From positions 65,507-129,506 of the forward strand of contig JAPOIM010000002.1 in assembly GCA_029978905.1 (NCBI GenBank): DNA of 64,000 bases, read 5' to 3'. Both the position numbers and the translations under genes were made by a program. The stretch is from Planctomycetota bacterium. GTDB lineage: Bacteria > Planctomycetota > Planctomycetia > Pirellulales > UBA1268. Under the pieces are notes generated by a model, which was not told the origin of the DNA, searched no databases, and worked only from the letters and a program-made list of their open reading frames with translations. Below, in pieces: positions 1,430 to 49,224 of the stretch. Each line of letters begins with the position of its first letter. Position 1 is the stretch's first letter.

Positions 1430-1612
1430 CTGCCCTCACACCTTTCACGCTCACGAGCCCCAGGGGGCGAAGGGGCAAGATACCACCCCGCCTCTGCCGG
1501 CAGCGGCAACCGCCGCGGAGAAGCCCATCCATCGTGAAACGGGCCCTCTCACCGGAACCACGCTCTCCCTCACGCTGTTTTGTAGACTGGATGGCGGTCC
1601 TGGAGGGGTGCG

Positions 1613-3913: not shown

Positions 3914-3928
3914 CACGAGCGATTGCCG

Positions 3929-10576: not shown

Positions 10577-13500
10577 CTAAAACCGCGAGAAGAACAGGTT
10601 GCGTGTTTCTTTGGTGACGTCGATCGTCTGGAAGCCCCAACGCACGGTCTGCATGAGGGTGTCTGTGATGTCAGCCACCCACAGTGCTCCTCGAGCAGAC
10701 TCCGGCGTGGTTGCACGCCTGCCGATCAACTCGTCGACCCCGTCGCCATCGGCGTCCCCGACCGTGATGCCTGTCCACACCACATTGGGATTCCAGTAAC
10801 CAACCAAGCGGTTGGTGCGGAGATTTGTCGTGCCGTCGGAGATGAGGCCCCACCACTGGCCGTTCGCGGCGCGAGCGATGATGTCGGTTTGCCCGTCGCC
10901 ATTGAAGTCACCGACGGACGTGTCGCCCCACGTCGTTTCTCCCCAAATACCGAGGGTGGTTGTCGTAAAGCCGATCGTGTCGGTGTTGGCGGTCGCCACA
11001 TACCAGACGTTGCCCGTCGTCCTGCCGGCGATGTCCGTCAGGCCATCGGCGTTGAAATCCCCCGTGACAATATCGTCACTGAAGTTGAGCGTCGGCGACC
11101 ACACCCCGAGAACCTTCGACGTCCAACCGCCGCCGTTCTGACCAAGCAGCCCCAGCCAATGGCCCGTCGTCGCAAGCCCGGCGATATCCATGTTGCCATC
11201 GCCATCGAAGTCGCCTGTTTGGATGGAGCGAATCTGAAACTGGGGGAGCCATCCGCCCACGCGCTGGTTGGTGAAGCCGACGTCGCCCCCTGTCTTAGCA
11301 AAGCCAACCCACCACACGCCGGCGCTCGTAAACCCAGCGATATCCGTGAAACCGTCACCGTTAAAGTCGGCTGCAACAACCTGCTGGATATCGAGCCCCG
11401 GACGCCAGTAGGTCATCAACACCGGCGCCCTGCCCCCTTGGCCGTCGCCTCCCGTGCCATCGCCGTTGTTGAGGGACGCCCACCACTGACCAAGGTTGGT
11501 GCGGCCGGCGATATCCATCAGCCCGTCGCCGTTAAAGTCACCTTCCACAACGTTGGTCCAATCGAACGATTGATTGATCGCCCACGTCGCAAATGTGGTT
11601 TGCGTGAAGGAGGAACCGTCGCTGGTGTTGAGCAACCAGTACCCCGCCGAGGTGAACGTCATGTACGACTCATACACCGGCGGGTCAGCAATCGCTGTCA
11701 CCGTCACGTCAAAGCTCACTGTCACACTGCCGTTATCGCCGGTGGTGCTGAGATCACCGTCGAGCCCACCGTCTTCCACGGTCACATCGATGGTGACGGT
11801 GCCCGTCTGCCCGGTGATCGGCGTGAAGGCCAGGCTCCCCGTGCCCTGCGGCGACGTGTAGGTCACCACCGGATTGGCGAGGGTCGCTGGATTGCCGCTC
11901 GTGGCGGTGACACGCAGCGGCTGCAGCTCTCCGAGCCCCGCCGAAATCCCTGTCAGCGTCACGGTTTGTTCACCGTCGTTCTCGGCAACCGTGACGTCCG
12001 CAATCGCTGCGATCGTGGGTAGCTTATTGACAGCAACGACCTCCACGCTGACCGTGTCGGTCGCTTCGGAGACCGCGGGCGCCTCCACAAACACTCTCAC
12101 ATGCCCGGCTTGAACCCCTGCCCCTGCGTGCCCCAGGGCGCCGACCGCGACCACGCCACCATTGTACGACACGGCAACTGCCGACCCAGCACTGTCGGTC
12201 GCAGCCTCGCCATCGATGTCGCTGTTAGCACGAACCCAGGCTGACTGGCCCACGTCCCAGCGGTAAACCCTGGCATGCCCTGCGTTGTTTCCATTGCCGT
12301 CGTTCCCGGTGGCCCCGATCACCACGGTGCTCGCATCCCCCGACAAGGCAACAGCCGAACCCGCGCTATCAAAGGCGGCCTCACCATCGAGATCGAGGCC
12401 CTGCTGAACCCATGCAGATGATCCGGTGTCCCAGCGGTAGACCCGCGTGTGTCCAGCGCCATAGCCGTTCCCCTGATTGCCGATCGCACCAGCAGCGAAC
12501 ACCAAGCCGTCGGCCGACAGCGAGAGCGCACTGCCGAAGTTGTCCCCACTGGCTTCACCGTTTATCTCAGCGCCGACCAACTCCCAACTGGTCGTCCCAG
12601 CATTCCAGCGGTAGACGCGCACCACCCCTGTGCCGCCGGTTTCACGCGGCGAACCGACTGCGAGTACCGAACCATTTTCGGAGAGCGACACCGCGGTACC
12701 GGCGCCAACACCTTCGGTGGTCCCCTGGATGGTGGCCCCTTGCTGCTCCCAAGACGAGGAGCCTGAGTTCCAGCGAAACACCTTCGCGTGGCCCGCGTCC
12801 ACCCCCGCAGCGTCATTACCAAACGCACCGATCGCAAGCGTCGTGCCATCTGCAGAAAGCGAAATCGCCGAACCGAATCGATCACCGAGCGCCTCGCCAA
12901 CAAGTGCTCCACCGAGCGGCGTCCAACCGGTGTTGTCGACCCACTGAAACACACGAACCTGCCCAGAATCGCGGCGGCCGCCACCGTCATGGAGCGGCGC
13001 CGCGATCGCCACAATCTTGCCGTTGCCGGCGAGAGAGACCGTGGTGCCAGCGGCATCCGACGCAGCCTCGCCGACGATCGGACTGCCCACCACATCCCAC
13101 CGGTCCCCGGCGCTGCTGCTCGTAAGGCGATAGATGGTTACAGCGCCCGCATTGGTCGCCGCTTGATCGCTCCCGGAAGCCCCCACCGCCACCGTGAGCC
13201 CGTCGCTCGACATGGCGACGGCCTTTCCGGCGTTGTCAAACGCGGCCTCACCGTCGAGGTCCCCTCCCAACTGCTCCCAAAGCGTGACTTGATCCCAGGC
13301 TCGGAAGGTCAGCACATCCGCAATTGATCCGCTCCAGCCAGCGGCCGGTTGGTAGTACACGCGCGTCGTGGCATCTGCCGCAAGAAATAAAGGATCGGCT
13401 TCCGCCACATTCGGGAAAGGAGCCCAGTTTGTTGTCCCGTTATCTCGTGAATACCACAGAGAGCCCCCTTCAAGATTCACGGCAACCACGGCAATGCCGA

Positions 13501-27429: not shown

Positions 27430-29184
27430 TTAGTTCTTTCCGCGCCACGCCCCGAGCGGGAGCACGTTGGCGCGGGCCGCGTAGGCATCCCAGGCGGCCG
27501 CCATCCGCTCCACCCGCTCCGGCATGTCGCCAGCCAGGTCGTGCAGTTCGGTGCGATCGGCCTGCATGTCGTAGAGTTCCCATGGCTTGCCTTCTTTGGC
27601 CACCAACTTCCAGCGACCCTCTCGAACCGCCCGGTTGCCTTCGTGCTCCCAGAAGATGGGCTGGCTCCTCACCAACTCTCCACCATCGAAAGCGGGCACG
27701 AGACTCACGCCCTCGGCCGGCTTGATGGAACGGCCTCCGCGTTCGTCGGGATAGTCCGCATCCGCTAGATCCACACAGGTGGCCATGATGTCAATCAGGT
27801 GGCCTGGGGCATGCACGAGGCTGCCGCGACGACCTGCCTCGATTCCTGCTGGCCAGTGCACGATCAGCGGCGTGGAAATCCCGCCCTCATGCACCCAATG
27901 CTTGTACTCGCGAAACGGTGTGTTGCTCACATTGGCCCACCCCTCACCGTAGCCGATGTAGGTGTCGGCTCCGCCAGGCATCACGCCATACCCCTGCCGC
28001 ACCGGATACCCGTCGCGGGTCTGCTTGGGGATCATGTCGAACTGCAGGTCGTCTGCTGCCATGGGGGGCAATGAAGGCGCTTCAGCGCGAGCCACCACCT
28101 GCTTTTTCCCGCCTCGCCCCATGCCCTCAGCACAGCCACCGTTGTCTTGCAGGTAGAAAATCGCGGTGTTGTCGAGCGTGCCCTGCCGCCGCAGCTCGTC
28201 TACCAACCGACCGATGCTGCGATCCATCGCATCCACCATCGCCGCGTAGACCTCCATGCAGCGAATCTCAAACGCGGCATCGGCAACGGCGTCCCACGCC
28301 ACCGCCTGCGGGCTCATCGGCCACGAGGCATCCACGAGACCAAGGCTTCGCGACTTCGCCAGCCGGGCGTCGCGGATGGCCGCAAACCCCTCGTCATAGC
28401 GACCGTGGTAGCGAGCCACGTCGGCCTCGAGGGCGTGCATGGGCCAGTGTGCAGCCGTGAAGGCGACGTAGAGGAAGAAGGGACGCTCGTCCCCTGACGA
28501 GGCGTGGTCTGCGAGGAACGCCACCGCGTTGTCGCCAATCGCATCGGTGTAATAGTAGGTCTCGGGTGTGTAGTCGGGGTCTGCAAACGGAGAGATCAGC
28601 GTGTTGTCGCGGGTGAGCGAGTTGGGGTCAAAGAAACTCCCCGCGCCATGGATCGTGCCGTAGAAGCGTTCGAACCCTCGCTGGAGCGGCCAGTTGTCCT
28701 GCTGCTGAGGCCCCTCAGGCCGCACCTTCTTGGTCACATGCCACTTCCCCACCGCATAGGTCGCATAGTCGGCATCGTGCAGCACTTCGGCAATCGTGAC
28801 GCACTCCTGGCTGAGGTCACCGCGATAGCCGTCAAGGCCCCGGTCTTCCATCATGTGGCCGATGCCCGCCTGGTGGGGATAGAGCCCCGTCAGCAGTGAT
28901 GCCCTCGTCGGGCAGCAGCGGGCCGTGTTGTAGAACTGCGAAAACCGCAATCCTCCGGCAGCCAAGCCATCCAGCACCGGCGTGTGGATCTCACCGCCAT
29001 AGCAGCCGATGTCGGAAAAGCCCATGTCGTCGGCCATGATCACGATCACGTTGGGGCGATCACTGGGCTGTCCGGTCACCGCAGGCGTCTGACGTTCTTC
29101 TGCCAATGCCGTCGCGCCCCCTGCCGCGACACACGCCACGGCCACAGTGCCTCGCAGCCACGCTACCGAAAAGATCCGCTTCAT
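27430..29184 (-). CDS. Arylsulfatase (formylglycine-dependent, S1 family)
   Basis: Signal peptide; PNVIVIMADDMGFSD; CCPTRASLLTG; VGKWH; AAHWPMHA; QDNG; HEGGISTP. Confidence 0.95.
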   Translation of the reverse strand: MKRIFSVAWLRGTVAVACVAAGGATALAEERQTPAVTGQPSDRPNVIVIMADDMGFSDIGCYGGEIHTPVLDGLAAGGLRFSQFYNTARCCPTRASLLTGLYPHQAGIGHMMEDRGLDGYRGDLSQECVTIAEVLHDADYATYAVGKWHVTKKVRPEGPQQQDNWPLQRGFERFYGTIHGAGSFFDPNSLTRDNTLISPFADPDYTPETYYYTDAIGDNAVAFLADHASSGDERPFFLYVAFTAAHWPMHALEADVARYHGRYDEGFAAIRDARLAKSRSLGLVDASWPMSPQAVAWDAVADAAFEIRCMEVYAAMVDAMDRSIGRLVDELRRQGTLDNTAIFYLQDNGGCAEGMGRGGKKQVVARAEAPSLPPMAADDLQFDMIPKQTRDGYPVRQGYGVMPGGADTYIGYGEGWANVSNTPFREYKHWVHEGGISTPLIVHWPAGIEAGRRGSLVHAPGHLIDIMATCVDLADADYPDERGGRSIKPAEGVSLVPAFDGGELVRSQPIFWEHEGNRAVREGRWKLVAKEGKPWELYDMQADRTELHDLAGDMPERVERMAAAWDAYAARANVLPLGAWRGKN

Positions 29185-29309
29185 CCCTGTGTCCCCCTCA
29201 AGTGCACCTTCGCAGACTACAATCAATGCCGAGTATCTCTGACAACGCGTCGGCTGACCACCTCAGGGGGCCGCGCGTAAGTCACGAGCCAAACAGGGGT
29301 GAGGTCACT

Positions 29310-32300
29310 GTGTTTGAAAGTCGATGGTCGGTGAGCGTCGTCAGAGGAATGCTGTTCACTGCGGTCGTCGCATGCAGCATCACCAGCGAGTGTTTTGCGG
29401 CAGACGAAGATCCGTTTGCCTCGCATGTTCGTCCCACAGACCCACGCTCTCCTGCCGAGGAGATGGCGGGCTTTCAACTGCCCCCCGGCTTTGTGGCAGA
29501 ACTTGTCGCCAGCGAAGACGAGATCGCCAAGCCGATGAACCTGGCCTTCGACGACCGCGGTCGGCTGTGGGTCACCTCCTCTTTGGAATACCCCTACGCG
29601 GCCCCGCTCGACACGCCGGCACGCGACTTCATCAAGGTGTTCGAAGACCGTGACGGCGACGGCACATTCGAAACGGCGACGACGTTTGCCGATGGCCTCA
29701 ACATCCCAATCGGTCTCCTGCCGGTGGCCGATGGCGTGATCTGCTACAGCATCCCCAACATCTGGCACCTTCGCGACACCGACGGCGATGGCCGAGCCGA
29801 CGAACGCACTGTGCTCTACGGGCCGATGGGATGGCAGCGTGATACCCACGGCATGTGCAACGCATTTCGCCAGGGCCCCGACGGCTGGATCTACGCCTGC
29901 CATGGCTTCAACAACGAAACGACCGTCAGCGGTCGCGACGGCCACACGATCACCATGCAGTCGGGCAACACCTTCCGCTTTCGTCCCGATGGGAGCCGCA
30001 TCGAGCACTACACCTGGGGCCAAGTCAATCCTTTCGGGATGGACTTCGACCTGCACGGTGACCTGTTTACCGCCGACTGCCACACCAAGCCAGTGACCCT
30101 GCTCCTCCCGGATGGGCGTTACGAGAGTTTTGGCAAACCACACGACGGCCTTGGATTTGTGCCGGCCGTGATGGACCACCTCCATGGCTCCACGGCCATT
30201 GGCGGCATTGCCATCTACGACGACGTGCGGTTCCCCGAGGCCTACCGCGGGCGCAGTTTCGGCGGCAATGTGATGACGAGCCGCATCAACACCAATCGGC
30301 TCGACCACACGGCCGCCACGGTGCGCGCGATGGAAGAGCCAGACTTCCTCGCCGCCGACGACCCCTGGTTCCGCCCGGTCGATCTGCGGATGGGGCCTGA
30401 CGGCGCGCTCTACGTCGCCGACTTCTACAACCGCATCATCGGCCACTACGAAGTGCCCCTCGATCACCCTGGCCGCGACCGCACCCGCGGTCGGATCTGG
30501 AGGATTCGCTACCAGGGTTCCGAGGCCGCCCCCACGCCGAACCTCGCGGCCACTCGGCTCGACCAAGCCGAGCCTGCTGCGCTCGTGTCGGCGCTTACCA
30601 ATCCCAACCGCCTGCTGCGCACGTTGGCCTTGGAGCGGTTGGTGGCGTCGAGCAGTCCTGACATCGCAGCACTCCTCGTCGATCTCTCCACGCAGGAGAC
30701 GGCCCCCGGGGTTGCCCGGGCCGCAGCGGCCTGGTGCCGCGCTCGTCGCCACGAACTTCCTTCCGCCGACCTCGCCACGCTCGCCACCTCGGGCGATGCA
30801 CTCCTGCGGGAGCATGCGATGCGGATTGCGGGAGCAGGCCTGCTGCCAGTGACGGAACCGTTGCGAGAAATCCTGCGTGTCGGCCTTGGGGATGCCCTCC
30901 CCATGGTCCAGCGTGCGGCGGCGATGAGTGTGGCCAGCCTGCCGGCCGACGCCTTGACTGGGCCGAGTGCCGAAAAGCTCGCCTGGCAGTTGGTGAAGAC
31001 CGAGGCCGCGTGCGAACCTTCCGACGTCCACTTGCAGCACACCCTGCGGATTGCGCTGCGCGCGTGCCTGCGTGACGAGGCTGTGCTCTTAGCGGTCGCC
31101 GCCAGGGCGAGCGAACCAACCGATTCTGGCATTGTCGCCTCGGTCTGCCTCGGCCTGGAATCGTCGCAGGCGGCTGATGCGATCGTGCATCACCTCGCCC
31201 ACCACGGTGTCGCCAACCCGGGAGAGCTGCGGGCCTTTGTGGAACACGCCGCCACGCGCGCTTCAGCAGAGGGATTGGCCACGCTCGCCGGCATTGCTCA
31301 GGAACGCTTCGCCGACAACCTTCCGTTTCAGATCGATCTGCTCGAATCCGCACGGCGTGCCCTTGATCGGCAGGGCAAACAGCCCGCCGACACACTTCGC
31401 CAGTGGGCCGACACCGTCGCCCGCCGCCTCCTGCAGATTGATGAATCTGGCCGGCCAGCCGAGCGGTTGGTGGCGATCTCCTGGACCGCTGCGCCGCTCA
31501 GGAAGCATCCCGGCGACAGCACCCCCTGGCCCATCCACTCGCGGACGTCTGCCGATGGAGTCTCCGCGCCCTTCCGCTGCAGCCTGCTCCGGGGCGAGCA
31601 GTGGCGAGGGCAAACCCGCTCAGCACCCTTTCCAGTGGGAGACCGTTTTTCGTTCTTCCTGGCCGGCCACGCGGGCTACCCCGACAAGCCAGCCCACCAA
31701 CGCAACGCCGTACGGCTGCGAGATGCGGCCACCGATGCAGTCCTCCGCGAGGCCTTCCCGCCGCGAAACGACACTGCGCAGCAGGTGGTGTGGGACACCT
31801 CCGACATCGCAGGTCGCAAGGTGCTCCTGGAAATCGTGGATGGCGACGCAGGAGACGCCTACGCCTGGCTGGCCGTGGGCCGTTTCTCGGAAGAAGGGCT
31901 GAATTCTTCAGCCGTCGACAGCGAACGCCAGGCTGCCGCCTCGCTGGTGGCCGCCTACCGACTGTCGAGCCTGATCGACCCTCTGGGCTTGCTGATCACC
32001 ACACTCCCGGCCACGGAAGCCACACGCGTGGCCGCCGCCGACGCCATCAATGCCTTTGCCGCGGATGCCCGCCTCGACGCCGCCGCCTTGGCCTTGTCGA
32101 TGCAGGCAGCGAGCGACGAACAGCGTGCCACCGCCGGGAAGGTGATCGTCGCGCGTGAGGCGGATGCCGCTGCCGATCTGGTGACGGCGATCCTGCGTGT
32201 CGCCACCTCAGAGCAGCAGCGTGCGATGGCCACCAGGCTCGCCGCCGACGAGGCTGGGTGCAGCCTCCTGGCCGCGGTGGTCGAGCAAGGCATCTGCTCG

Positions 32301-32870
32301 CCGCGGCTGCTTGCTGAACCGTCGGTGAGCACACGAATCAGCGGCCTTCGCGACGCAGCTCTGCGCAACCGTCTCCTCGCCCTCGCCGCCACAGCCCCCG
32401 CAGACGATGCCGTGCTCGCGCGACTGATCGACGACCGCCGTCAGGAGTATCGCGAGCACCCGGGCGATGGCGGTGCTGGCATCGCCCTCTTCCGCAAGCA
32501 CTGCGTGGGCTGTCATCAGGTGGCTGGGGAGGGGGCCAAAGTGGGGCCACAACTCGATGGCATCGGCAACCGAGGGCTCGACCGGGTGGCCGAAGACCTG
32601 CTCGATCCGAATCGCAACGTCGACGTCGCCTTTCGGACCACCACCTTCCTCACCACTGACGGACGAGTGCTCTCCGGGCTCGTCACGAGCGAAACCCCCG
32701 ATGCGGTGGCCTGCGTCGACCAGCAAGGGAAAGAGTTTGCCCTGCCGGTCGCCGATATTGAGGAGAGGACGGTGTCGAGCCTGTCGCTGATGCCCGCCAA
32801 CTTCCACGAAACGCTCCCCCCAGACGACATCCGGGACCTGCTGAGTTACCTTTTGTCATTAAGAAACTAA
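29310..32870 (+). CDS. PVC-type heme-binding CxxCH protein (dehydrogenase-like propeller, helical repeats, C-terminal cytochrome c)
   Basis: KPMNLAFDDRGRLWV, DTHGMCN, GQVNPFG, DPWFRPVD, DFYNRIIGHYEV, RGRIWRI; C-terminal CVGCH...VGPQLDGIG...SLMPANF. Start approximate. Confidence 0.92.
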   Translation: MFESRWSVSVVRGMLFTAVVACSITSECFAADEDPFASHVRPTDPRSPAEEMAGFQLPPGFVAELVASEDEIAKPMNLAFDDRGRLWVTSSLEYPYAAPLDTPARDFIKVFEDRDGDGTFETATTFADGLNIPIGLLPVADGVICYSIPNIWHLRDTDGDGRADERTVLYGPMGWQRDTHGMCNAFRQGPDGWIYACHGFNNETTVSGRDGHTITMQSGNTFRFRPDGSRIEHYTWGQVNPFGMDFDLHGDLFTADCHTKPVTLLLPDGRYESFGKPHDGLGFVPAVMDHLHGSTAIGGIAIYDDVRFPEAYRGRSFGGNVMTSRINTNRLDHTAATVRAMEEPDFLAADDPWFRPVDLRMGPDGALYVADFYNRIIGHYEVPLDHPGRDRTRGRIWRIRYQGSEAAPTPNLAATRLDQAEPAALVSALTNPNRLLRTLALERLVASSSPDIAALLVDLSTQETAPGVARAAAAWCRARRHELPSADLATLATSGDALLREHAMRIAGAGLLPVTEPLREILRVGLGDALPMVQRAAAMSVASLPADALTGPSAEKLAWQLVKTEAACEPSDVHLQHTLRIALRACLRDEAVLLAVAARASEPTDSGIVASVCLGLESSQAADAIVHHLAHHGVANPGELRAFVEHAATRASAEGLATLAGIAQERFADNLPFQIDLLESARRALDRQGKQPADTLRQWADTVARRLLQIDESGRPAERLVAISWTAAPLRKHPGDSTPWPIHSRTSADGVSAPFRCSLLRGEQWRGQTRSAPFPVGDRFSFFLAGHAGYPDKPAHQRNAVRLRDAATDAVLREAFPPRNDTAQQVVWDTSDIAGRKVLLEIVDGDAGDAYAWLAVGRFSEEGLNSSAVDSERQAAASLVAAYRLSSLIDPLGLLITTLPATEATRVAAADAINAFAADARLDAAALALSMQAASDEQRATAGKVIVAREADAAADLVTAILRVATSEQQRAMATRLAADEAGCSLLAAVVEQGICSPRLLAEPSVSTRISGLRDAALRNRLLALAATAPADDAVLARLIDDRRQEYREHPGDGGAGIALFRKHCVGCHQVAGEGAKVGPQLDGIGNRGLDRVAEDLLDPNRNVDVAFRTTTFLTTDGRVLSGLVTSETPDAVACVDQQGKEFALPVADIEERTVSSLSLMPANFHETLPPDDIRDLLSYLLSLRN

Positions 32871-37667: not shown

Positions 37668-37924
37668 CCACACCTTTCGACCTCGCAAAGACCGAACGGC
37701 CTCCCCGCAAGTCGCCTCCCCCACGCAAGACTCCCAGTCTGCCGGCTAAGACGCCGCAAGCCGTGGAAGGTGCGCAAGCGGGCGAAGTGCTGACGTTCGC
37801 TGTTCATCCTCGCAGGGCCGAGTGTCGATGCTAGCGAGAGGATGGTGCGGCCAGTGGTCGCAGTTTCGTGTGCTTTCCGCAGCACCGGCAGGCACCATGC
37901 TCCCCTCGGACTCCCCTGCTCGCC

Positions 37925-39352
37925 ATGCGTCGGCACCGCGTCCACCGCACGATCCTCGCAGCGACTTTCGCAACAGCGTCTTGGCTGGTGGCCACGACGG
38001 GCGGCGCCCAGGCGCCGGAGATGTCTGACGTCGCCCCCGATGAGGTTCGTGAGGCCTGGGAACGTACCGACTACGGGAGCGGCCCCGATCGTCGCATTCA
38101 CCTCCCGCGGCTCGAAGACCACGACATCTTCACCTACGGCTGGATCGAGGCCGGGCTTGGAGCCAACAACTGGGGATCGCCCTTCAACGGCCCGGTCAAC
38201 ATGGCGGACCGTTCCTGGCAGGGCCAACTCAACCAGTTCTACCTGGTGACCGAGCGGGTGGCCGATGGCTCTCAGGGGTGGGACGTTGGCGGACGGGCCG
38301 ACCTGCTCTTCGGCACCGACTACTTCTACACGACCGCGCTCGGCTGGGATGCCTACAACTTCCAGCCACTTGGCATTGAAAACACGGCCGCCTGGGGCTT
38401 CTCCAAAGACTACGGCATCGCGATGCCGCAGCTCTATGCCGACCTTGCGTACGAAAACGTGAACCTCCGCTTTGGACACTTCTACAGCATCCTGGGTTTC
38501 GAGCAGGTGCCGGCGATTGGCAACTTCTTCTACACCCACTGTTTCTCGATGATGTTCTCCCCGTTCACATTCACGGGCTTCCTCGGTTCATGGGAAATCG
38601 ATGACGAGTTCACGGTCTACAGTGGCGTGACCACCGGCTGGAACAACTTCTTTGACGGTCAGCCCATGACGGGTGATTTCGCGATCCTGAACCCCACCTA
38701 CCCAGGCGCCAGCAGCAACGCGAGTTATCTCGGCGGCGTGGAGTACGAGAGTCTCGACAAGAAAGAAAAGATTGCTGTCACAATCACCACCGGCAACGAG
38801 GTCACCACCATCAGCCGAAATCCCGCGGATGGCTCTCTTGTCGGCAATCGAACGCTTGTAAGCACGGTCTACACAAACCGCCTCTCGGACCGCCTGATCT
38901 GGGTTTTCCAAAACGACAACGCGTGGCAGTTCAACGCCAACGTCGCTCCAGCCGCTGCAAATGAGCAGCCAGGCACGGCCCAGTGGTACTCCTTCGTGAA
39001 CTACCTCTTCTGGGAGTTCACGCCAGAGTGGCAGGGCGCCGTGCGACTGGAATACTTCCGCGACAACAACGGCTACATCGTCTCAACGCCCCTCCGCAAC
39101 GAGAGCCAGTTGGGCAATCCGGGCGACTGGACAGGGGGATTCGCGGGTAGCTTTTGGGAGCTGACCTTCGGGCTCAACTGGTATCCCAACGAGAACTGGC
39201 TGATCCGCCCCGAGCTCCGCTATGACTGGTTCACCCCCAACAACGACTCCGTGCCCCTGCCCTACGGCAAGCCCCTCGGCCAAGCCATCGGCGCAGGTGG
39301 CGATCAATACGGCCAGTTCTATGCCGGCTGCGACATGGTCTGGCAGTTTTAG
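37925..39352 (+). CDS. Outer-membrane beta-barrel porin (BBP2/OmpL-like, DUF1597)
   Basis: Signal peptide; QLNQFY, LLFGTDY, MPQLY, GHFYSILGFE, NFFYTH, RLEYFRD, IRPELRYDW; C-terminal aromatic residue (WQF). Confidence 0.85.
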   Translation: MRRHRVHRTILAATFATASWLVATTGGAQAPEMSDVAPDEVREAWERTDYGSGPDRRIHLPRLEDHDIFTYGWIEAGLGANNWGSPFNGPVNMADRSWQGQLNQFYLVTERVADGSQGWDVGGRADLLFGTDYFYTTALGWDAYNFQPLGIENTAAWGFSKDYGIAMPQLYADLAYENVNLRFGHFYSILGFEQVPAIGNFFYTHCFSMMFSPFTFTGFLGSWEIDDEFTVYSGVTTGWNNFFDGQPMTGDFAILNPTYPGASSNASYLGGVEYESLDKKEKIAVTITTGNEVTTISRNPADGSLVGNRTLVSTVYTNRLSDRLIWVFQNDNAWQFNANVAPAAANEQPGTAQWYSFVNYLFWEFTPEWQGAVRLEYFRDNNGYIVSTPLRNESQLGNPGDWTGGFAGSFWELTFGLNWYPNENWLIRPELRYDWFTPNNDSVPLPYGKPLGQAIGAGGDQYGQFYAGCDMVWQF

Positions 39353-39358
39353 TTGTCG

Positions 39359-40213
39359 CTAGCCCTGAATGCGGTAGCGACGGCGGATCAGCGAAAGAAA
39401 AACGCTCTCCGGCAAGACCTTTCGCAGGGCGACGAGCAGGGGTGCGGGAGCGGCCACGGGATACCGCAGGCGCGTACTCCGATCCGTGATCGCTCGTACC
39501 ACCGTGGCAGCAACGGCCTCCGGGGGCGCGCCTTCAAGGCCTGCTGAAAGGCTGATCTCTTCGCAGCGTGTGACGAACTCGGCATAACCAGCGTCGTCTG
39601 GGGGTGTGATCCGCTCGCGGCTTCGGCCATAGAAATCCGTGCGAACGGCCCCTGGCTCGACAAGCCTCAACTTGATCCCGTGGGGCTGCAGTTCATACGC
39701 CAGTGATTCACTGAAGCCCTCCACCGCCCACTTCGTTGCGTGGTACACGCTGTAGAGCGGGAAGGTGATTCGGCCGCCCATCGACGAGACCTGCACGATC
39801 GTGCCCTGGCGTTGCCGGCGCATGATGGGAATCACCTCCCGTGTGACGCGCATCAGGCCCAACACGTTGACCTCGAACTGCCGCGTGAGCACCTCGTCGT
39901 CCATCGCCTCAAAAACGCCGTCAACCGCGAAGCCCGCGTTGTTCACCACCGCGTCGAGTCCGCCAAAGGTCTCGACGGCCTCGGCCACCGCAGATCGCAC
40001 GCTGCCTGGATCCGTGACATCGAGCTTCAGCACGCACACCCCGGAGAGCGTGCCGAAGTCACCCGCGTCTTGCGGTGATCGCATCGTGGCAGCCACACGC
40101 CAGCCGCGTGCGGCGAGGGCCACGACGGTGGCCCTCCCAATGCCAGTAGACGCGCCCGTCACCAGGGCACGGCCCGCTGCTGATCCACGGCCTCCACCCA
40201 ATCCGTTGTTCAT
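39359..40213 (-). CDS. SDR family oxidoreductase
   Basis: TGASTGIG, NNAG, VSSMGG, YHATKWAVEG (YxxxK), VEPG. Confidence 0.95.
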   Translation of the reverse strand: MNNGLGGGRGSAAGRALVTGASTGIGRATVVALAARGWRVAATMRSPQDAGDFGTLSGVCVLKLDVTDPGSVRSAVAEAVETFGGLDAVVNNAGFAVDGVFEAMDDEVLTRQFEVNVLGLMRVTREVIPIMRRQRQGTIVQVSSMGGRITFPLYSVYHATKWAVEGFSESLAYELQPHGIKLRLVEPGAVRTDFYGRSRERITPPDDAGYAEFVTRCEEISLSAGLEGAPPEAVAATVVRAITDRSTRLRYPVAAPAPLLVALRKVLPESVFLSLIRRRYRIQG

Positions 40214-40341
40214 GGCGTTCTCCTCGCCGCCCCCTCAGGCAAGACGGCATTGCCAGACGCTTCTTCGGACCCCAGAATCTTTATCAACTTCGCCGCAAAA
40301 TGCGGAGAAAACTGAGCATACCGCCTTTCGACACTTTCCCG

Positions 40342-42018
40342 ATGACCGCTCCAACACCCTCTGCAGTACGCGGCACGCTGAACGACTACCTCGATGCCAG
40401 CGACATCATGGACGTGCCTCCGTTGACGGACGCTGCCTGGGATGCGATCCGCCAGCAATCCGGACGATCTCTCGCCTGGAAGTTTTGCACGCTTCGCAAT
40501 CTGCTCGTCCACCGGGGGAAATTTGTCAATGATGCCAACGGCTTTGCTTGGGGAGGCATCTACCGCACGCTCTTTGTCACCTCGATCACTACGACCTCCT
40601 ATCGCAATGAGGGGCACTTCCGCTCCGGCGAGCGGATCCAAGGCACGAACGATTTCTTCTTCGGTTCGTTTGTGTTGCCCAAATCCGCATCCGAGTTTCG
40701 AGATATCGTGCGGGTCGTGAATCTCCGACACCACGTGGCTGGCGTCGCCCGCCCCACGCTCGATGGCGACGTCCGGGTGATTGATCCGTATGAGGCTGAC
40801 TACGCCTATGTGGCCACCTCGTTCATCGAATCCATCCGCCGCGGGCTCACGCTCTGTGGTTCGTCACGCGAAGGGGACAGCAACCAAGAACTGGCTTGGA
40901 AGGTGGCGATGATCCTCTACCAACTTGCCGGCTTTACAGGCCTCAAGCGGATGCCGCGGAATCTCGCCGCGCACGACCGATTTTGTGCCGCCTTCGACCA
41001 GCGGCTGCGTGAACACGCACCCTCGTCGCGCGTGCGTCGGATGGCCCAAGAAATCGCTTGGCGGATCATCCCTTTCACCGCCACCATGGCGGGCACCACC
41101 GTCGCCAAACACGTGCACCGGCATATCGATCCGGAAACGCGCGAGTTGCTGTTTCCAGGTGGGGAGATCCCCGAGGAACTCGAACAGCAGCGACAGGGGT
41201 GGCAACGTCGCCGAGACACAACGGGAGCGGTCGAGCAGATTCGCGGCCGATCGTTGAAACGCAAAGAGCTCTACCAGCGTTCCGACGTGGCTGCTCTCCG
41301 CACCGCCTACCAAGATGCCCAGGACGAAAAGACCGATGACCTCGTCGTCGCTCGCTTGATCGGCGCGATTCTCCTGCACGCCATCGATGCTGGAAAAGAC
41401 GAAAAACCACTCGAACGGCGCACGGTTGAACTGTCCGCTGGAGAATCGCTGATTCAGGAAGGGGCCACGGTGGAGGAGATGTTTGTGGTGCTTTCGAGCA
41501 CCGCCCCGCTCCTCGCTCGCCAGGTTGACGCGTCGGCCCCATCGGGCGATCGGCTCCTTGCGACAATCACCGCACCAACGGTGCTCGGTGAAATCGGCAT
41601 GTGGCGTGAGAAGCCTGCGGTGGCCACGGTGGCTTCCAAGGAGCCCAACCGACTCGAAGTACTCGTGATCGACCGTCGGCGATTTCAGATCCTCAAGGAA
41701 GAACCTGGCTTTCGGGCAGCGATCGCCGCCGAACTCCAGCGGCGGCTGGCGATGAACGCGGTGCGGGTGGGCTCCCTGTTGGACGACACTGCGGCCCGTA
41801 CGCAAGACCCTCAACTGCGTTCCATCGCGCAACTCTTCCGCTACCTCACCGGAGACTCCCACGGATCACTCGACGCCGTGATCGACCTTCCCGCTTCCGC
41901 AACGCCCGCAGAGTGCACCGAAGCCCTGCGAACCCAGGTGGCGGCGGTGATGGCGACCGACCGCCTTGAGCCCGAGCTCATGCAGCACCTGCGAAACATC
42001 ATGACCACGCTCGGGTAG
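40342..42018 (+). CDS. Hypothetical protein: Lcp/MpaB (DUF2236)-like N-terminal domain plus C-terminal cNMP-binding-like domain
   Basis: N-terminal ERIQGT...VVNLRHH...DYAYVATSF...GLKRMP; C-terminal LSAGESLIQEG...EMFVVL...LGEIGMW...ATV...LEVLVIDRRRF. Confidence 0.65.
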   Translation: MTAPTPSAVRGTLNDYLDASDIMDVPPLTDAAWDAIRQQSGRSLAWKFCTLRNLLVHRGKFVNDANGFAWGGIYRTLFVTSITTTSYRNEGHFRSGERIQGTNDFFFGSFVLPKSASEFRDIVRVVNLRHHVAGVARPTLDGDVRVIDPYEADYAYVATSFIESIRRGLTLCGSSREGDSNQELAWKVAMILYQLAGFTGLKRMPRNLAAHDRFCAAFDQRLREHAPSSRVRRMAQEIAWRIIPFTATMAGTTVAKHVHRHIDPETRELLFPGGEIPEELEQQRQGWQRRRDTTGAVEQIRGRSLKRKELYQRSDVAALRTAYQDAQDEKTDDLVVARLIGAILLHAIDAGKDEKPLERRTVELSAGESLIQEGATVEEMFVVLSSTAPLLARQVDASAPSGDRLLATITAPTVLGEIGMWREKPAVATVASKEPNRLEVLVIDRRRFQILKEEPGFRAAIAAELQRRLAMNAVRVGSLLDDTAARTQDPQLRSIAQLFRYLTGDSHGSLDAVIDLPASATPAECTEALRTQVAAVMATDRLEPELMQHLRNIMTTLG

Positions 42019-45587: not shown

Positions 45588-46946
45588 ATGCACCCCACCG
45601 AAACACCGACTGCAGAGGGCAAGAGGCTCGCTCCCGTGCTGGGCACGTGGCAACTGTGGGGGCTCGCTGTCGGGCTCGTGATTTCCGGCGAGTACTTTGG
45701 CTGGAGCTACGGATGGGCCCAGGCAGGCACGCTCGGGTTCCTGGTGACCACGCTCGTCGTCGCGGTGATGTACACGAGCTTCATCTTTAGTTTCACCGAA
45801 CTCACCACCGCCATTCCAGATGCGGGGGGCCCGTTCGCCTACGCAAGGCGGGCATTCGGCCCCCTCGGCGGGGCCATCGCCGGCTGGGCCACGTTGATCG
45901 AGTTTGTGTTTGCCCCGCCAGCGATCGCCCTCGCCATCGGGGCTTACGTGGCCGTGCAGTTCCCTGGTCTCGAGCCTGCCTGGACGGCCGTGGGGGCCTA
46001 CGCCATCTTCATGCTCCTCAACATCCTCGGCGTCACGATCGCCGCGAACTTTGAGCTGTTTGTGACCCTGCTGGCGGTTGGCGAACTGCTCGTGTTTATG
46101 GGGGTGGTCGCCCCGGGTTTCTCGTGGGACCATTTCAAGGCGGGCGGATGGGCCGGCAGCGATCAGTTCAGCCCCGAGGCTGTCGGCGGGATCCTCGCCG
46201 CCACGCCCTTTGCCATCTGGTTCTTCCTGGCGATCGAGGGGGTGGCAATGGCCGCGGAAGAAGCCCGCGATCCGCACCGCACCATTCCACGGGCCTACAT
46301 TGGCGGCATGCTCACGCTCCTCGCGCTCGCGCTCGGCGTGATGTTTTTTGCCGGCGGCGTGGGGAACTGGTCGGAACTGGCCAACATCAACGACCCACTG
46401 CCCCAAGCGATGAAGAAAGTGGTTGGCGAGGCGAGCGGCTGGCTCCACATGCTCGTCTGGCTCGGCCTGTTTGGGCTCGTCGCGTCCTTTCACGGGATCA
46501 TCATGGGCTACTCGCGGCAGATCTTCGCCATGGCCCGCGCTGGCTACCTGCCGAGGCGACTAGCGATGCTCCACCCCACCCGCGGCACTCCCTGGGTGGC
46601 GATCCTCGCCGGCGGTGTCGTGGGGATCGCAGCCATCTTTAGCGACTCGGTCGTCGTCCTTGGTGGGCAGCCGTTGACCGCCAACATCGTCACCATGGCC
46701 GTGCTCGGCGCGATGGTGATGTACATCTCCGCCATGGCGAGCCTGTTTGCCTTGCGCCGTCGTGAACCCGAGTTGCCTCGCTCCTTTCCAGCCCTCGGCT
46801 ACCCATGGGTGCCCGGCCTCGCGCTCGCCTTGGCCGTCTTTTGCCTCGGCACCGTGATCTGGTCCAACCCCGGCGTGAGCCTGGTCTTCGGTGGCTTGAT
46901 GACAGCGGCGGTGGCAGGGCACATGCTCTTTGGCCTCGAGCGGTGA
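45588..46946 (+). CDS. eat: Ethanolamine permease (APC family)
   Basis: LWGLAVGLVISGEYFGWSYG, PDAGGPFAYARRAFG, PFAIWFFLAIEG, ASFHGII; 12 TM helices; directly upstream of eutB. Confidence 0.93.
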   Translation: MHPTETPTAEGKRLAPVLGTWQLWGLAVGLVISGEYFGWSYGWAQAGTLGFLVTTLVVAVMYTSFIFSFTELTTAIPDAGGPFAYARRAFGPLGGAIAGWATLIEFVFAPPAIALAIGAYVAVQFPGLEPAWTAVGAYAIFMLLNILGVTIAANFELFVTLLAVGELLVFMGVVAPGFSWDHFKAGGWAGSDQFSPEAVGGILAATPFAIWFFLAIEGVAMAAEEARDPHRTIPRAYIGGMLTLLALALGVMFFAGGVGNWSELANINDPLPQAMKKVVGEASGWLHMLVWLGLFGLVASFHGIIMGYSRQIFAMARAGYLPRRLAMLHPTRGTPWVAILAGGVVGIAAIFSDSVVVLGGQPLTANIVTMAVLGAMVMYISAMASLFALRRREPELPRSFPALGYPWVPGLALALAVFCLGTVIWSNPGVSLVFGGLMTAAVAGHMLFGLER

Positions 46947-46956
46947 AGGAGCGGGA

Positions 46957-48333
46957 ATGGCCTACCAACACACCCTCGACAGCCGCGTGTGGCACTTTCC
47001 TGATCTGAAGACGCTGCTCGCGAAGGCCACGCCACACCGCTCAGGCGATGTGCTCGCTGGTGTCGCCGCCGACTCGCCCGTGGAGCGGACCGCCGCCCGC
47101 ATGGCCTTGGCCGACCTCCCGCTCTCCCGGTTTCTCGAGGAACCGGTGGTGCCCGCTGAAACGGACGAGGTTACGCGGCTGATCTTTGAGAGCCACTGCC
47201 GCGACGCGTTTTCGCCAGTGGCCCACCTCACCGTGGGCGATTTCCGCGACTGGTTGCTGAGCGACGCGGCAGACGAAGCCTCCCTGACGGCGCTCCGCCC
47301 CGGGCTGACGCCCGAGATGGTGGCGGCCGTGAGCAAGTTGATGCGTCAACAAGACCTCATCAGCGTGGCTCGCAAGTGCCGTGTCGTCACCCGTTTTCGC
47401 AACACGATCGGGCTCCCCGGCACGCTGGCGATGCGACTGCAGCCAAACCATCCGGCCGATGATCCCCGAGGCGTGCTCGCCGGCGTCCTCGATGGGCTGA
47501 TGTATGGCTGTGGCGACGCCGTGATCGGCGTCAACCCTGTCAGCGACGACATGACCACGCTGGCAATGTTGCTTCGAAACCTCGATGAGGTGATCCAGCG
47601 TTTTGCGATCCCCACCCAGGCGTGTGTCCTCGCGCATGTCAGCAGCCAGATCGAAGCGATCAATGCCGGCCTGCCTGTTGACCTCGTGTTTCAGTCAATC
47701 GGCGGCACCGAGGCCACCAACCGCAGTTTCGGCATCAGCCTGGCCATGCTCCGCGAAGCCCACGATGCCGCCCTTGCCACCGGCCGAGGCACCGTCGGCA
47801 GCAATGTGATGTACTTCGAGACAGGCCAGGGCTCGGCCCTCTCGGCAAACGCCCACCACGGTGTCGATCAGCAAACCTGCGAAGCCCGGGCCTACGGTGT
47901 GGCTCGCGCCTTTGATCCGCTCATTTGCAACACCGTCGTCGGCTTCATCGGGCCGGAGTATCTCCACGATGGCAAGCAGATCATCCGGGCAGGTCTGGAG
48001 GATCACTTCTGCGGCAAGCTCCTCGGCCTGCCGATCGGCTGCGACGCCTGCTACACCAACCATGCCGAGGCCGATGCCGACGACATGGACTCGCTGATGA
48101 CGCTCCTGGCCACGGCGGGCGTGACGTTCCTCATTGGGGTGCCAGGCGCCGACGATGTGATGCTTGGCTACCAGAGTCTGTCGTTCCACGACGCGCTCTA
48201 TCTTCGCGAGGTGTTTGGCCTGCGAAGGGCGCCGGAGTTTGAGGCGTGGCTCGCCGAGATGGACCTCCTGGACCGCCACGGCCGCTTGCTGCCTGTCTCG
48301 ACACGACACCCGCTGCTCTCCATGCAGACATAA
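46957..48333 (+). CDS. eutB: Ethanolamine ammonia-lyase large subunit
   Basis: LLAKATPHRSGDVLAG, RLQPNHPADD, GDAVIGVNP, MYFETGQGSALS, NTVVGFIGPEYL, GLEDHFCGKLLG. Confidence 0.96.
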   Translation: MAYQHTLDSRVWHFPDLKTLLAKATPHRSGDVLAGVAADSPVERTAARMALADLPLSRFLEEPVVPAETDEVTRLIFESHCRDAFSPVAHLTVGDFRDWLLSDAADEASLTALRPGLTPEMVAAVSKLMRQQDLISVARKCRVVTRFRNTIGLPGTLAMRLQPNHPADDPRGVLAGVLDGLMYGCGDAVIGVNPVSDDMTTLAMLLRNLDEVIQRFAIPTQACVLAHVSSQIEAINAGLPVDLVFQSIGGTEATNRSFGISLAMLREAHDAALATGRGTVGSNVMYFETGQGSALSANAHHGVDQQTCEARAYGVARAFDPLICNTVVGFIGPEYLHDGKQIIRAGLEDHFCGKLLGLPIGCDACYTNHAEADADDMDSLMTLLATAGVTFLIGVPGADDVMLGYQSLSFHDALYLREVFGLRRAPEFEAWLAEMDLLDRHGRLLPVSTRHPLLSMQT

Positions 48334-48372
48334 ACTGCATACTTCCTCGCGAGACGGCACTCGCGAGCCTTT

Positions 48373-49224
48373 TTGCCACATGTCCCACAGTCCCCGCGTT
48401 TGATGATGCACGAGCCTCCACCGCTTCCTTCGCTTGCCTTTTCTCCCCAGGGACCTGCCGTGGTTGAGGATCCCTGGGCCGGCCTGCGGTCGCTGACGCC
48501 AGCGCGGATCGCCCTCGGTCGTGCGGGACACGCCCTGCCCACGCGGGAACTGCTCGCCGCCGATGAGGCTCATGCCCGCGCTCGCGCGGCCGTCCACGCC
48601 CCACTCGACGTCGACGCGTTGGGCGACCAACTCCGCGAACTCACCGGCGGAGTACCGCCCGTGCGTGTCGAATCAGCCGCTCCGGACCGTTCTCGTTACC
48701 TGCTCCGCCCCGATCTCGGCCGCCGCCTGTCCGCAGAGAGCAGACGCCAACTCACGCCGCCTGCAGGCCATGCCCCGGGCTGCGATCTTGCGATCTTGAT
48801 CGCAGACGGGCTCTCCACCACCGCGGTCGCTCGGCACGCCGCTGCGGTCGTTGGCGCGATCCTCTCCGCGGCACCCGCGGACTGGCGAATCGCCCCCTTG
48901 GTGCTCGCCACCCAAGCCCGCGTGGCGCTCGGCGACGAGGTTGGTGAACTGCTCGGCGCGCGGCTCATCGCTGTCCTGCTTGGGGAGCGACCCGGGCTCT
49001 CCTGCCAGGAAAGCCTGGGGCTCTACCTGACTTGGGCTCCGCGACCGGGCCGCACCGACGCCGAGCGCAACTGCCTTTCCAACATTCATCCCGGTGGGCT
49101 CTCGCCGGCCAACGTGGCCCACAAACTCTGGTGGCTGGCGGGTGAAGCACGTCGCCTGTCGCTCACCGGTGTGCACCTCAAAGACCGCAGTGGGGCCGCC
49201 GGATTGCTCGGCGAGAACTCGTGA
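48373..49224 (+). CDS. eutC: Ethanolamine ammonia-lyase small subunit
   Basis: TPARIALGRAG, HARARAAVH, YLLRPDLGR, ADGLS, LGERPGLS, DAERNCLSNI. Start uncertain (48373-48406). Confidence 0.94.
   Translation: MPHVPQSPRLMMHEPPPLPSLAFSPQGPAVVEDPWAGLRSLTPARIALGRAGHALPTRELLAADEAHARARAAVHAPLDVDALGDQLRELTGGVPPVRVESAAPDRSRYLLRPDLGRRLSAESRRQLTPPAGHAPGCDLAILIADGLSTTAVARHAAAVVGAILSAAPADWRIAPLVLATQARVALGDEVGELLGARLIAVLLGERPGLSCQESLGLYLTWAPRPGRTDAERNCLSNIHPGGLSPANVAHKLWWLAGEARRLSLTGVHLKDRSGAAGLLGENS

Follow-up and report, generated by a model that had tools for sequence, protein, structure and literature searches.

The question raised by the DNA stretch analysed here, 64,000 nucleotides of a Planctomycetota genome (hereafter the window), is whether one of its genes encodes an enzyme that carries its own sensor, and on what such an enzyme would act. 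The gene lies at positions 40342-42018 of the forward strand and codes for a protein of two main domains. A preliminary description had taken this protein for an unusual fusion of a haem domain of the Lcp/MpaB type with a degenerate cyclic nucleotide-binding (CNB) domain and had proposed a cytoplasmic haem oxygenase, or a gas or redox sensor, under the control of a non-canonical ligand. We demonstrate that the architecture and a gene cluster in which the gene recurs across two phyla are real and undescribed. Overall, the protein and its homologs (hereafter the family) may be ligand-gated, alkene-cleaving haem oxygenases that take part in the tailoring of a lipid or isoprenoid, and to this chain of steps as a whole we assign a probability of about 0.5.

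The N-terminal domain and its relation to MpaB and Lcp

Enzymes of the MpaB/Lcp type form a small but expanding class; these haem proteins break C=C bonds by an ozonolysis-like reaction, and their known substrates are rubber, the farnesyl chain in mycophenolic acid biosynthesis and anethole. Folded alone with AlphaFold2 (AF2), the N-terminal 330 residues of the family protein gave a model with a predicted local distance difference test score (pLDDT) of 90.4 and a predicted template modelling score (pTM) of 0.89. When this model was compared by Foldseek with 350,542 chains of the Protein Data Bank (PDB), the best match was the t-anethole oxygenase of Stenotrophomonas maltophilia (8S1J; template modelling (TM) scores 0.42/0.45, probability 0.84, 290 columns) and the second LcpK30 (5O1L; 0.38/0.34), followed by ordinary globins and phycocyanins. 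These two are the only PDB matches with meaningful TM-scores over about 290-310 columns. With LcpK30 (5O1L/5O1M), whose fold is a globin-like helical core capped at both termini, and with MpaB/DUF2236 the domain appears to share an all-helical, globin-like build and a similar size. The t-anethole oxygenase, which cleaves the alkene of trans-anethole to p-anisaldehyde, is likewise soluble and bacterial, but its identity to the family protein is 14%, its Foldseek E-value is non-significant and it is a single-domain protein without a regulatory domain. We assume that 8S1J is the structure from Purwani et al. 2024 (N Biotechnol 83:82), a study cited in PMC12724181. None of the sequence queries used connected t-anethole oxygenase with MpaB or Lcp.

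A further signal came from a comparison of profiles. A profile of the genuine 'oxygenase MpaB family', gathered starting from a match to PF09995 in a Planctomycetota genome, matches LcpK30 at E=6e-27 and pins the Lcp motifs DRIAKT (R164/K167/T168) and TRMVH198 to MpaB columns. The profile of the N-terminal domain was aligned with it by hhalign over 117 columns, with an E-value of 1.7e-5 and a probability of 78%. Its score was 44.6, whereas controls scored 13.2 for reversed columns, 14.8±2.5 for single-column shuffles and 25.6±3.1 (maximum 31.6) for shuffles in blocks of 15 columns; the real score is thus about 6 standard deviations over the block-shuffled controls. In addition, the distant full-length relative P0198 matches PF09995 (MPAB_Lcp_cat) with 22.3 bits (E=1.5e-4), 0.7 bits short of the gathering cut-off of 23 bits, over a span that includes its R/T/H residues. 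Among the 10 distant relatives scanned it is the only one to match, and against PDB sequences it found no match. The preliminary assignment to the Lcp/MpaB type is weakly supported, by the hhalign comparison, by the near-threshold match of P0198 and by the best two structural matches, although the latter fall short of significance. Our reading is that the domain very probably belongs to the MpaB/Lcp superfamily as a remote member. Divergence of this extent has a precedent. In MpaB-family oxygenases and in Lcps alike, the cofactor is b-type haem and the bonds attacked are C=C bonds (PMC12724181; PMC5522427), and members of the two groups can share only about 13% identity; despite an identity of 12.8% to an Lcp, the same fold and His ligand are predicted for the nitrile rubber oxygenase Nro1 (PMC12724181). 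The family protein, at about 13-15% identity to Lcp and MpaB, differs from them in lying below the Pfam threshold.

An alignment that reaches down to 21-25% identity shows ten invariant residues in the N-terminal domain: G91, R98, T102, H130, Y193, G200, P205, H211, F214 and L270. R98, T102, H130 and H211 are also kept in a 36%-identical ortholog from Verrucomicrobiota, whereas conservation of H131 does not extend beyond the close clade. From the alignment, the conservation of R98, T102 and H130 at such distances is more than chance. In Lcp the key residues are R164/T168 and H198 (PMC5522427), and the family protein resembles Lcp and MpaB in having the order (E/D)-R-I-x-x-T, a His about 30 residues further on near the end of the next helix, and then a helix led by EAD or QAD. 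T102 and H130 are 28 residues apart as against 30 in Lcp, and H130 precedes E151 of the EAD motif by 21 residues, where 24 separate H198 and Q222 of the Lcp QAD motif. This EAD/QAD anchor, 21-24 residues after the His, falls within the confidently aligned block. A greedy alignment of the divergent wing of the family, which is of low confidence, sets the motif VNL(M/R)H on the diagonal beside LRLLH160 of MpaB, the equivalent of TRMVH198 in Lcp; it leaves the register of Arg and Thr ambiguous, and the profile alignment does not set R98/T102 opposite R126/T130 of MpaB. Of the R/T/H triad drawn in the preliminary description, all three residues are invariant, but only the His comes to lie next to Lcp H198, in the low-confidence greedy alignment, and the equivalence was not recovered by profile alignment. 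We consider H130 a likely proximal haem ligand and counterpart of H198, judged by its sequence context; that R98/T102 correspond to R164/T168 is plausible but unproven from the motif. The extra invariant H211, which sets the family apart from Lcp and MpaB, is a possible second haem ligand or catalytic residue.

Several results weigh against this assignment and against the function built on it. PF09995 misses the family protein and its N-terminal 290 residues even at E<=10, and finds no member in the window's genome. A hidden Markov model (HMM) of the N-terminal domain run against PDB sequences missed Lcp and gave only spurious matches to TAL repeats and designed helices, and an HMM of the genuine MpaB proteins matched 0 of 257 collected family proteins. 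For the domain no Foldseek E-value is lower than 0.38 and no TM-score reaches 0.5. The hhalign signal is confined to the domain's second half; the first half, in which RIxGT and the His are located, gave no profile-profile signal when compared alone with the R...T...H region of MpaB (8.9 compared with 11.0±1.4 in controls), and the equivalence of the triad therefore rests on motif, spacing and helix position. Where Lcp has its distal-ligand lysine K167, the family protein has Gly. With regard to the gene cluster, only the short-chain dehydrogenase/reductase (SDR) gene accompanies the family gene in the window, the remaining cluster being located beside a paralog on contig C205, and the cluster showed neither a terpene synthase gene nor any other that would obviously supply a substrate.

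A domain that does without haem, for instance a lipid-binding or non-haem catalytic module, would agree with the missing PF09995 match, the non-significant Foldseek values, the R...T...H segment that does not align and the absent distal Lys. The likeness to MpaB/Lcp would then reflect convergence of folds or an ancient homology with the cofactor lost, and Arg, Thr and His would serve other chemistry. We regard this explanation as unlikely, given that the hhalign signal is well above its controls, that the best two structural matches among all PDB chains are the alkene-cleaving t-anethole oxygenase and LcpK30, both of which we read as MpaB/Lcp-type haem enzymes, and that an invariant His occurs at the expected place relative to the aligned block. 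Relations to cytochrome P422 (DUF6875) and to the lipocone/VanZ proteins were rejected from published descriptions.

The family protein has neither a transmembrane segment nor a signal peptide (highest 19-residue Kyte-Doolittle hydropathy 1.5), in agreement with the preliminary description, and is by this measure of its sequence soluble and cytoplasmic. Lcp, in contrast, is secreted, whereas the family protein has neither a Tat nor a Sec signal; that it is an Lcp-like rubber oxygenase of the secreted kind was rejected for the lack of a signal peptide.

A cNMP-binding fold with an arginine-less cassette

PF00027 (cNMP_binding) is the only domain that a Pfam scan detects in the family protein (E=1.4e-7; 31.9 bits with a gathering score of 27.5). 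A family profile matches the regulatory subunit of protein kinase A (PKA-R) at E=1e-16, and Foldseek relates the AF2 beta-roll to the cyclic nucleotide monophosphate (cNMP) domains of PKA-R, CRP and HCN with a probability of 1.0 and E-values of about 1e-5. The C-terminal domain is thus confirmed as a genuine cNMP-binding fold. The full-length AF2 model, built from a 23-sequence alignment, has a pLDDT of 89.2 and a pTM of 0.85, and the latter value suggests a defined packing interface between the domains; with this model Foldseek returned only CNB-domain proteins (PKA-R, CRP, HCN, SthK and Pat).

The phosphate-binding cassette of the protein reads GEIGMWREKPAVATV (residues 416-430), as the preliminary description had it, with Ala426 in place of the canonical Arg (R209 in PKA RIα, R82 in CRP). 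The replacement is a property of most of the family. Arg is absent from the cassette in 119 of the 120 closest homologs (P-A-x-A-T-V), 98 of which read exactly GEIGMWRGQPAVATV, and the cassette of the Verrucomicrobiota ortholog is also Arg-less (GEIGMWRGRPAITTV). The glycine and glutamate, which in CNB cassettes contact the ribose 2'-OH, are kept (G416 family-wide; G416-E417 as an invariant pair in the close clade), as is Thr429. A CRP-like beta-roll with Ala for the phosphate-binding Arg is therefore what the preliminary description had claimed and what we find, but its term 'degenerate' is misleading: a cassette that is almost invariant is constrained rather than degenerate. The family member P0163 (about 22% identical; loci L016 and L017) keeps the canonical KRTATV in its cassette (GEIRMLKGGKRTATV), and thus the loss of Arg is specific to a clade that comprises most of the family and is not universal. 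The gene neighbours of P0163 encode SLH-domain proteins and do not belong to the conserved cluster.

In canonical cassettes, the Arg binds and neutralises the cyclic phosphate, as a comparison of PKA and the trypanosomal TbPKAR illustrates; the Arg-less cassette of trypanosomatid PKA-R, GELELMYQTPTVA, binds inosine and guanosine, and putting back the Arg alone makes the Trypanosoma PKA-R respond to cyclic nucleotide (PMC10959531). Like the family protein, trypanosomatid PKA-R (6FLO/6H4G) has its Arg replaced and Val as the next residue (P-T-V-A there, P-A-V-A here), and its example makes clear that a CNB domain without the Arg can bind non-cyclic ligands with high affinity. However, E311 of TbPKAR, the Glu that contacts the ribose 3'/5'-hydroxyls (GELELM), corresponds to Gly419 here (GEIGMW), so the family does not copy the nucleoside-binding solution of TbPKAR, which moreover is a eukaryotic kinase regulator and not an enzyme fusion. 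We infer that the CNB domain binds a ligand other than canonical cyclic AMP (cAMP) or cyclic GMP (cGMP), or makes a fixed regulatory contact.

A conventional receptor for cAMP or cGMP, in which R422 would replace the lost Arg, is very unlikely in our view. R422 lies four residues upstream of A426, is invariant in the close clade, and distant members frequently have a basic residue at this position or the next one, so that it could conceivably compensate; the retained Gly416-Glu417 and Thr429, the canonical KRTATV of P0163 and the nucleotide cyclase genes near some clusters would also fit. On the other hand, the phosphate-neutralising Arg is the key determinant, as its reintroduction into Trypanosoma PKA-R has shown (PMC10959531), and Ala is fixed in 119 of the 120 homologs. 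Such a receptor would change only the ligand and would be compatible with a gated oxygenase.

Control of an attached enzyme by a CNB domain has a precedent in the mycobacterial acetyltransferase Pat (4OLL/4ORF), one of the proteins that the CNB domain matched in the PDB, by Foldseek and in NCBIfam. In Pat, CNB and catalytic domains occur on one polypeptide, the former exerting allosteric control. Unlike the family protein, Pat has a canonical cassette, binds cAMP, and carries its CNB domain at the N-terminus of a catalytic GNAT domain; here an Arg-less CNB domain follows the presumed catalytic domain. For MpaB or Lcp no fusion with a CNB domain and a C-terminal helical region was found described. 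The CNB fold and the long C-helix are shared with CRP/FNR, whose defining output, the helix-turn-helix (HTH), is missing. The conserved C-terminal helical region stands at the position of the HTH in CRP-family proteins and has no detectable relatives: no HTH family of Pfam matched the family protein at E<=1, the C-terminal fragment alone gave nothing relevant at E<=10, a profile of the region found no PDB relative, and wing strands are absent from its AF2 secondary structure. That the preliminary description saw no HTH is in line with these searches, and a CRP-like transcription factor was rejected on the same grounds.

A recurrent gene cluster and a proposed pathway

The family gene is located within a recurrent, rearranged cluster that is conserved across Planctomycetota and Verrucomicrobiota. 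We searched the cluster proteins by tblastn against 11 loci and then against 54 independent loci, many of them on short contigs. An acyltransferase combining Acyl_transf_3 and ankyrin domains (AcylT3-Ank) was present at 21 of the 54 loci, a cytochrome P450 at 19, a phospholipase D (PLD)-like protein at 16, an SDR at 15, an MGT-type glycosyltransferase and a Tet-like exporter of the major facilitator superfamily (MFS) at 10 each, a tandem paralog of the family gene at seven and a sulfotransferase at six. In Verrucomicrobiota, the compact core consists of the AcylT3-Ank gene on the minus strand, then family gene, MFS, P450 and PLD-like genes in this order on the plus strand, and the SDR gene on the minus strand. 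Frequently the family gene opens the cluster or points away from it. Orthologs of the SDR of the window adjoin family members elsewhere, Verrucomicrobiota included, and roughly two-thirds of the cluster SDRs are 64-73% identical to it. The nearest characterised relatives of the P450 are the albaflavenone monooxygenase CYP170A1, pentalenene oxygenase, the carotene hydroxylases CYP97A3 and CYP97C1, and cholesterol 24-hydroxylase, all of which use terpenoid, carotenoid or sterol substrates. The cluster thus probably tailors an isoprenoid or another lipid, and the earlier suggestion that the family protein acts with the SDR on such a substrate has gained in strength through the recurrence of SDR orthologs together with a terpenoid-type P450.

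In the window's genome the cluster is split between two places. On contig C205 (locus L014, positions 1-8339), a paralog of the family gene at 5315-7114 on the minus strand is part of a same-strand run of genes for a sulfotransferase, the family protein, a PLD-like protein, a P450, a GDSL lipase and an SRPBCC/DUF805 protein. The P450 reading frame of this run (2447-3421, minus strand) encodes only 324 aa and matches positions 143-452 of the Pfam p450 model; it may be N-terminally truncated, frameshifted or provided with a mis-set start.

According to our proposal, the N-terminal domain of about 270 residues would be a highly divergent MpaB/Lcp (DUF2236) oxygenase in which b-type haem and O2 cleave C=C bonds of isoprenoid or alkenyl chains into aldehyde and ketone products, a chemistry that fits the terpenoid-type P450 and the SDR of the cluster. 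H130 would be the proximal haem ligand, R98 and T102 from the preceding helix would line the distal pocket, and the CNB-type domain would gate the oxygenase domain allosterically when it meets a ligand that is neither cAMP nor cGMP. The family protein could thus cleave or oxygenate a lipophilic, probably isoprenoid, substrate at its C=C bonds; the SDR would reduce the resulting carbonyl, with SDR and P450 together processing carbonyl and hydroxyl groups, acyl-, glycosyl- or sulfotransferases would decorate the product, and the MFS transporter would export it. Haem binding, catalysis, gating and the identities of ligand and substrate are all inferred. The lack of an output domain or HTH fits an enzyme with a regulatory domain. 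More tentatively, the family could represent the first ligand-gated members of the MpaB/Lcp superfamily, with a CNB-derived domain that senses another small molecule in place of cyclic nucleotides and switches on an alkene-cleaving dioxygenase. The signal would perhaps be a pathway intermediate or nucleoside-like, and the product of the six-gene cluster a previously unknown apo-isoprenoid or modified lipid.

The MpaB/Lcp-type enzymes met in this analysis are single-domain and unregulated. If the proposal is true, a cytoplasmic member with a built-in sensor would extend the MpaB/Lcp sequence space well below Pfam detection, and would add a new regulatory logic as well as another CNB domain re-purposed for a ligand that is not a cyclic nucleotide. 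The cluster of P450, SDR, acyltransferase, PLD-like protein and exporter points to an undescribed lipid or isoprenoid product in abundant uncultured freshwater bacteria of the Planctomycetes-Verrucomicrobia-Chlamydiae (PVC) group.

One locus (L003) has two further genes near the cluster, one for an AMP-binding, acyl-CoA-synthetase-like enzyme fused to a CNB domain (946-2874, minus strand) and one for a REC-HNOBA-guanylate cyclase (11747-12976, minus strand). These neighbours suggest cyclic-nucleotide or nitric oxide (NO)-related signalling around the pathway in some genomes.

It is doubtful, in our estimate, that the family protein is instead a haem-based sensor, whose globin-like N-terminal domain would detect O2, NO, CO or the redox state and regulate the neighbouring cluster, with the CNB-like domain and the conserved helical C-terminus relaying the signal to a partner protein or DNA. 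The fold of Lcp resembles that of globin-coupled sensors (PMC5522427), and ordinary globins come next in the Foldseek list. H211 as a second invariant His could provide the bis-His coordination typical of sensors, a C-terminal region stands where CRP-family proteins have their HTH, the gene is often first in the cluster or divergent, and the REC-HNOBA guanylate cyclase neighbours some clusters. Like globin-coupled sensors, the protein would place a globin-like haem domain, which is putative here, before other domains; unlike them, it has no MCP, GGDEF/EAL, kinase or STAS output, nor any recognisable DNA-binding domain. Further, CNB domains are normally inputs rather than outputs, genomes have one to three copies that are often arranged in tandem, as one would sooner expect of tailoring enzymes than of a regulator with a single task, and the characterised MpaB/Lcp relatives met in this analysis are all oxygenases.

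Distribution of the family and surroundings of the gene

A word-indexed search returned 278 full-length homolog clusters at about 57-65% identity, which are named, if at all, only 'cyclic nucleotide-binding domain-containing protein' or 'CRP-like cAMP-binding protein'. An exhaustive phmmer search extended the family by full-length proteins with 40-50% identity and by a divergent wing with 21-31%. The 54 loci come from species-representative genomes, nearly all of them metagenome-assembled genomes (MAGs) of uncultured freshwater Pirellulales or Planctomycetia; three are MAGs of Verrucomicrobiota, with a family protein 36-38% identical to that of the window, and none of the 54 belongs to a cultured isolate. 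The family occurs in only 5 of 41 close relatives of the window's genome, and carriers often have two or three copies. The architecture, which the preliminary description did not recognise, is thus uncharacterised but not rare, and we found no paper that links DUF2236 or MpaB with a CNB domain or describes this gene cluster. At loci L038, L043, L046, L054, L068, L069 and L070, copies with 54-62% identity occur in MAGs titled 'Candidatus Kuenenia stuttgartiensis', 'Actinomycetota bacterium' or 'Chitinophagaceae bacterium', several of which also have cluster genes of the Pirellulales type; such titles are probably taxonomic mislabels or binning errors.

The features of the locus are compiled in the table. 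Its motifs lie where the preliminary description had placed them: the codons of R98 and T102 begin at 40633 and 40645, H130-H131 occupy 40729-40734, and DYAYVATSF and GLKRMP are residues 153-161 and 200-205. It was also accurate on the SDR gene, which is divergent from the family gene.

Table. Features of the family gene and the adjoining region in the window. The codon of residue n begins at 40342+3(n-1).
Feature	Positions	Strand	Remarks
SDR gene	39359..40213	-	284-aa classical SDR oxidoreductase; belongs to the conserved cluster
Divergent intergenic region between SDR gene and family gene	40214..40341	.	128 bp
Family gene (MpaB/Lcp-like + CNB protein)	40342..42018	+	558 aa; stop included
N-terminal all-helical domain	40369..41166	+	About residues 10-275; AF2
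R98-I-Q-G-T102 motif	40633..40647	+	Start of helix 95-111; R98 and T102 invariant; candidate counterpart of Lcp R164...T168
N127-L-R-H130-H131	40720..40734	+	End of helix 117-132; H130 invariant
Segment aligned to MpaB 185-318	40795..41163	+	Residues 152-274; invariant Y193, G200, P205, H211, F214
H211	40972..40974	+	Invariant, family-specific; Ala in MpaB and Lcp at the aligned column
Helical linker and N-terminal helices of the CNB domain	41173..41391	+	Residues 278-350; AF2
CNB-type beta-roll domain	41404..41706	+	Residues 355-455; Pfam match 362-450
Phosphate-binding cassette, G416 to V430	41587..41631	+	Canonical Arg = Ala426
Long C-helix and conserved C-terminal helical region	41704..42015	+	Residues 455-487 and 490-558; AF2

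A second in-frame ATG is found upstream at 40300, but homologs begin at the equivalent of 40342, which supports the latter as the start. The family gene forms a stand-alone transcription unit, and the spacer between it and the SDR gene presumably holds a shared promoter region. A PEP-CTERM/FGE gene lies downstream in convergent orientation, and for this reason a functional link to it was rejected. Immediately 3' of the SDR gene, on the opposite strand and convergent with it, is a gene for a BBP2 (OmpL-like) beta-barrel porin (37868-39352, plus strand) that was not seen beside family members in other genomes. Further away in the window, an amino-acid permease gene followed by EutB and EutC, the large and small subunits of ethanolamine ammonia-lyase, forms an apparent ethanolamine-utilisation operon (45588-49224, plus strand). 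At 29106-32870 on the plus strand lies a gene for a protein of 1254 aa that combines a DUF7133 domain with a cytochrome c domain at its C-terminus, and 3' of this gene follow those for an amine-oxidase-like flavoprotein, an HGSNAT-type acetyltransferase and a PQQ-like beta-propeller protein.

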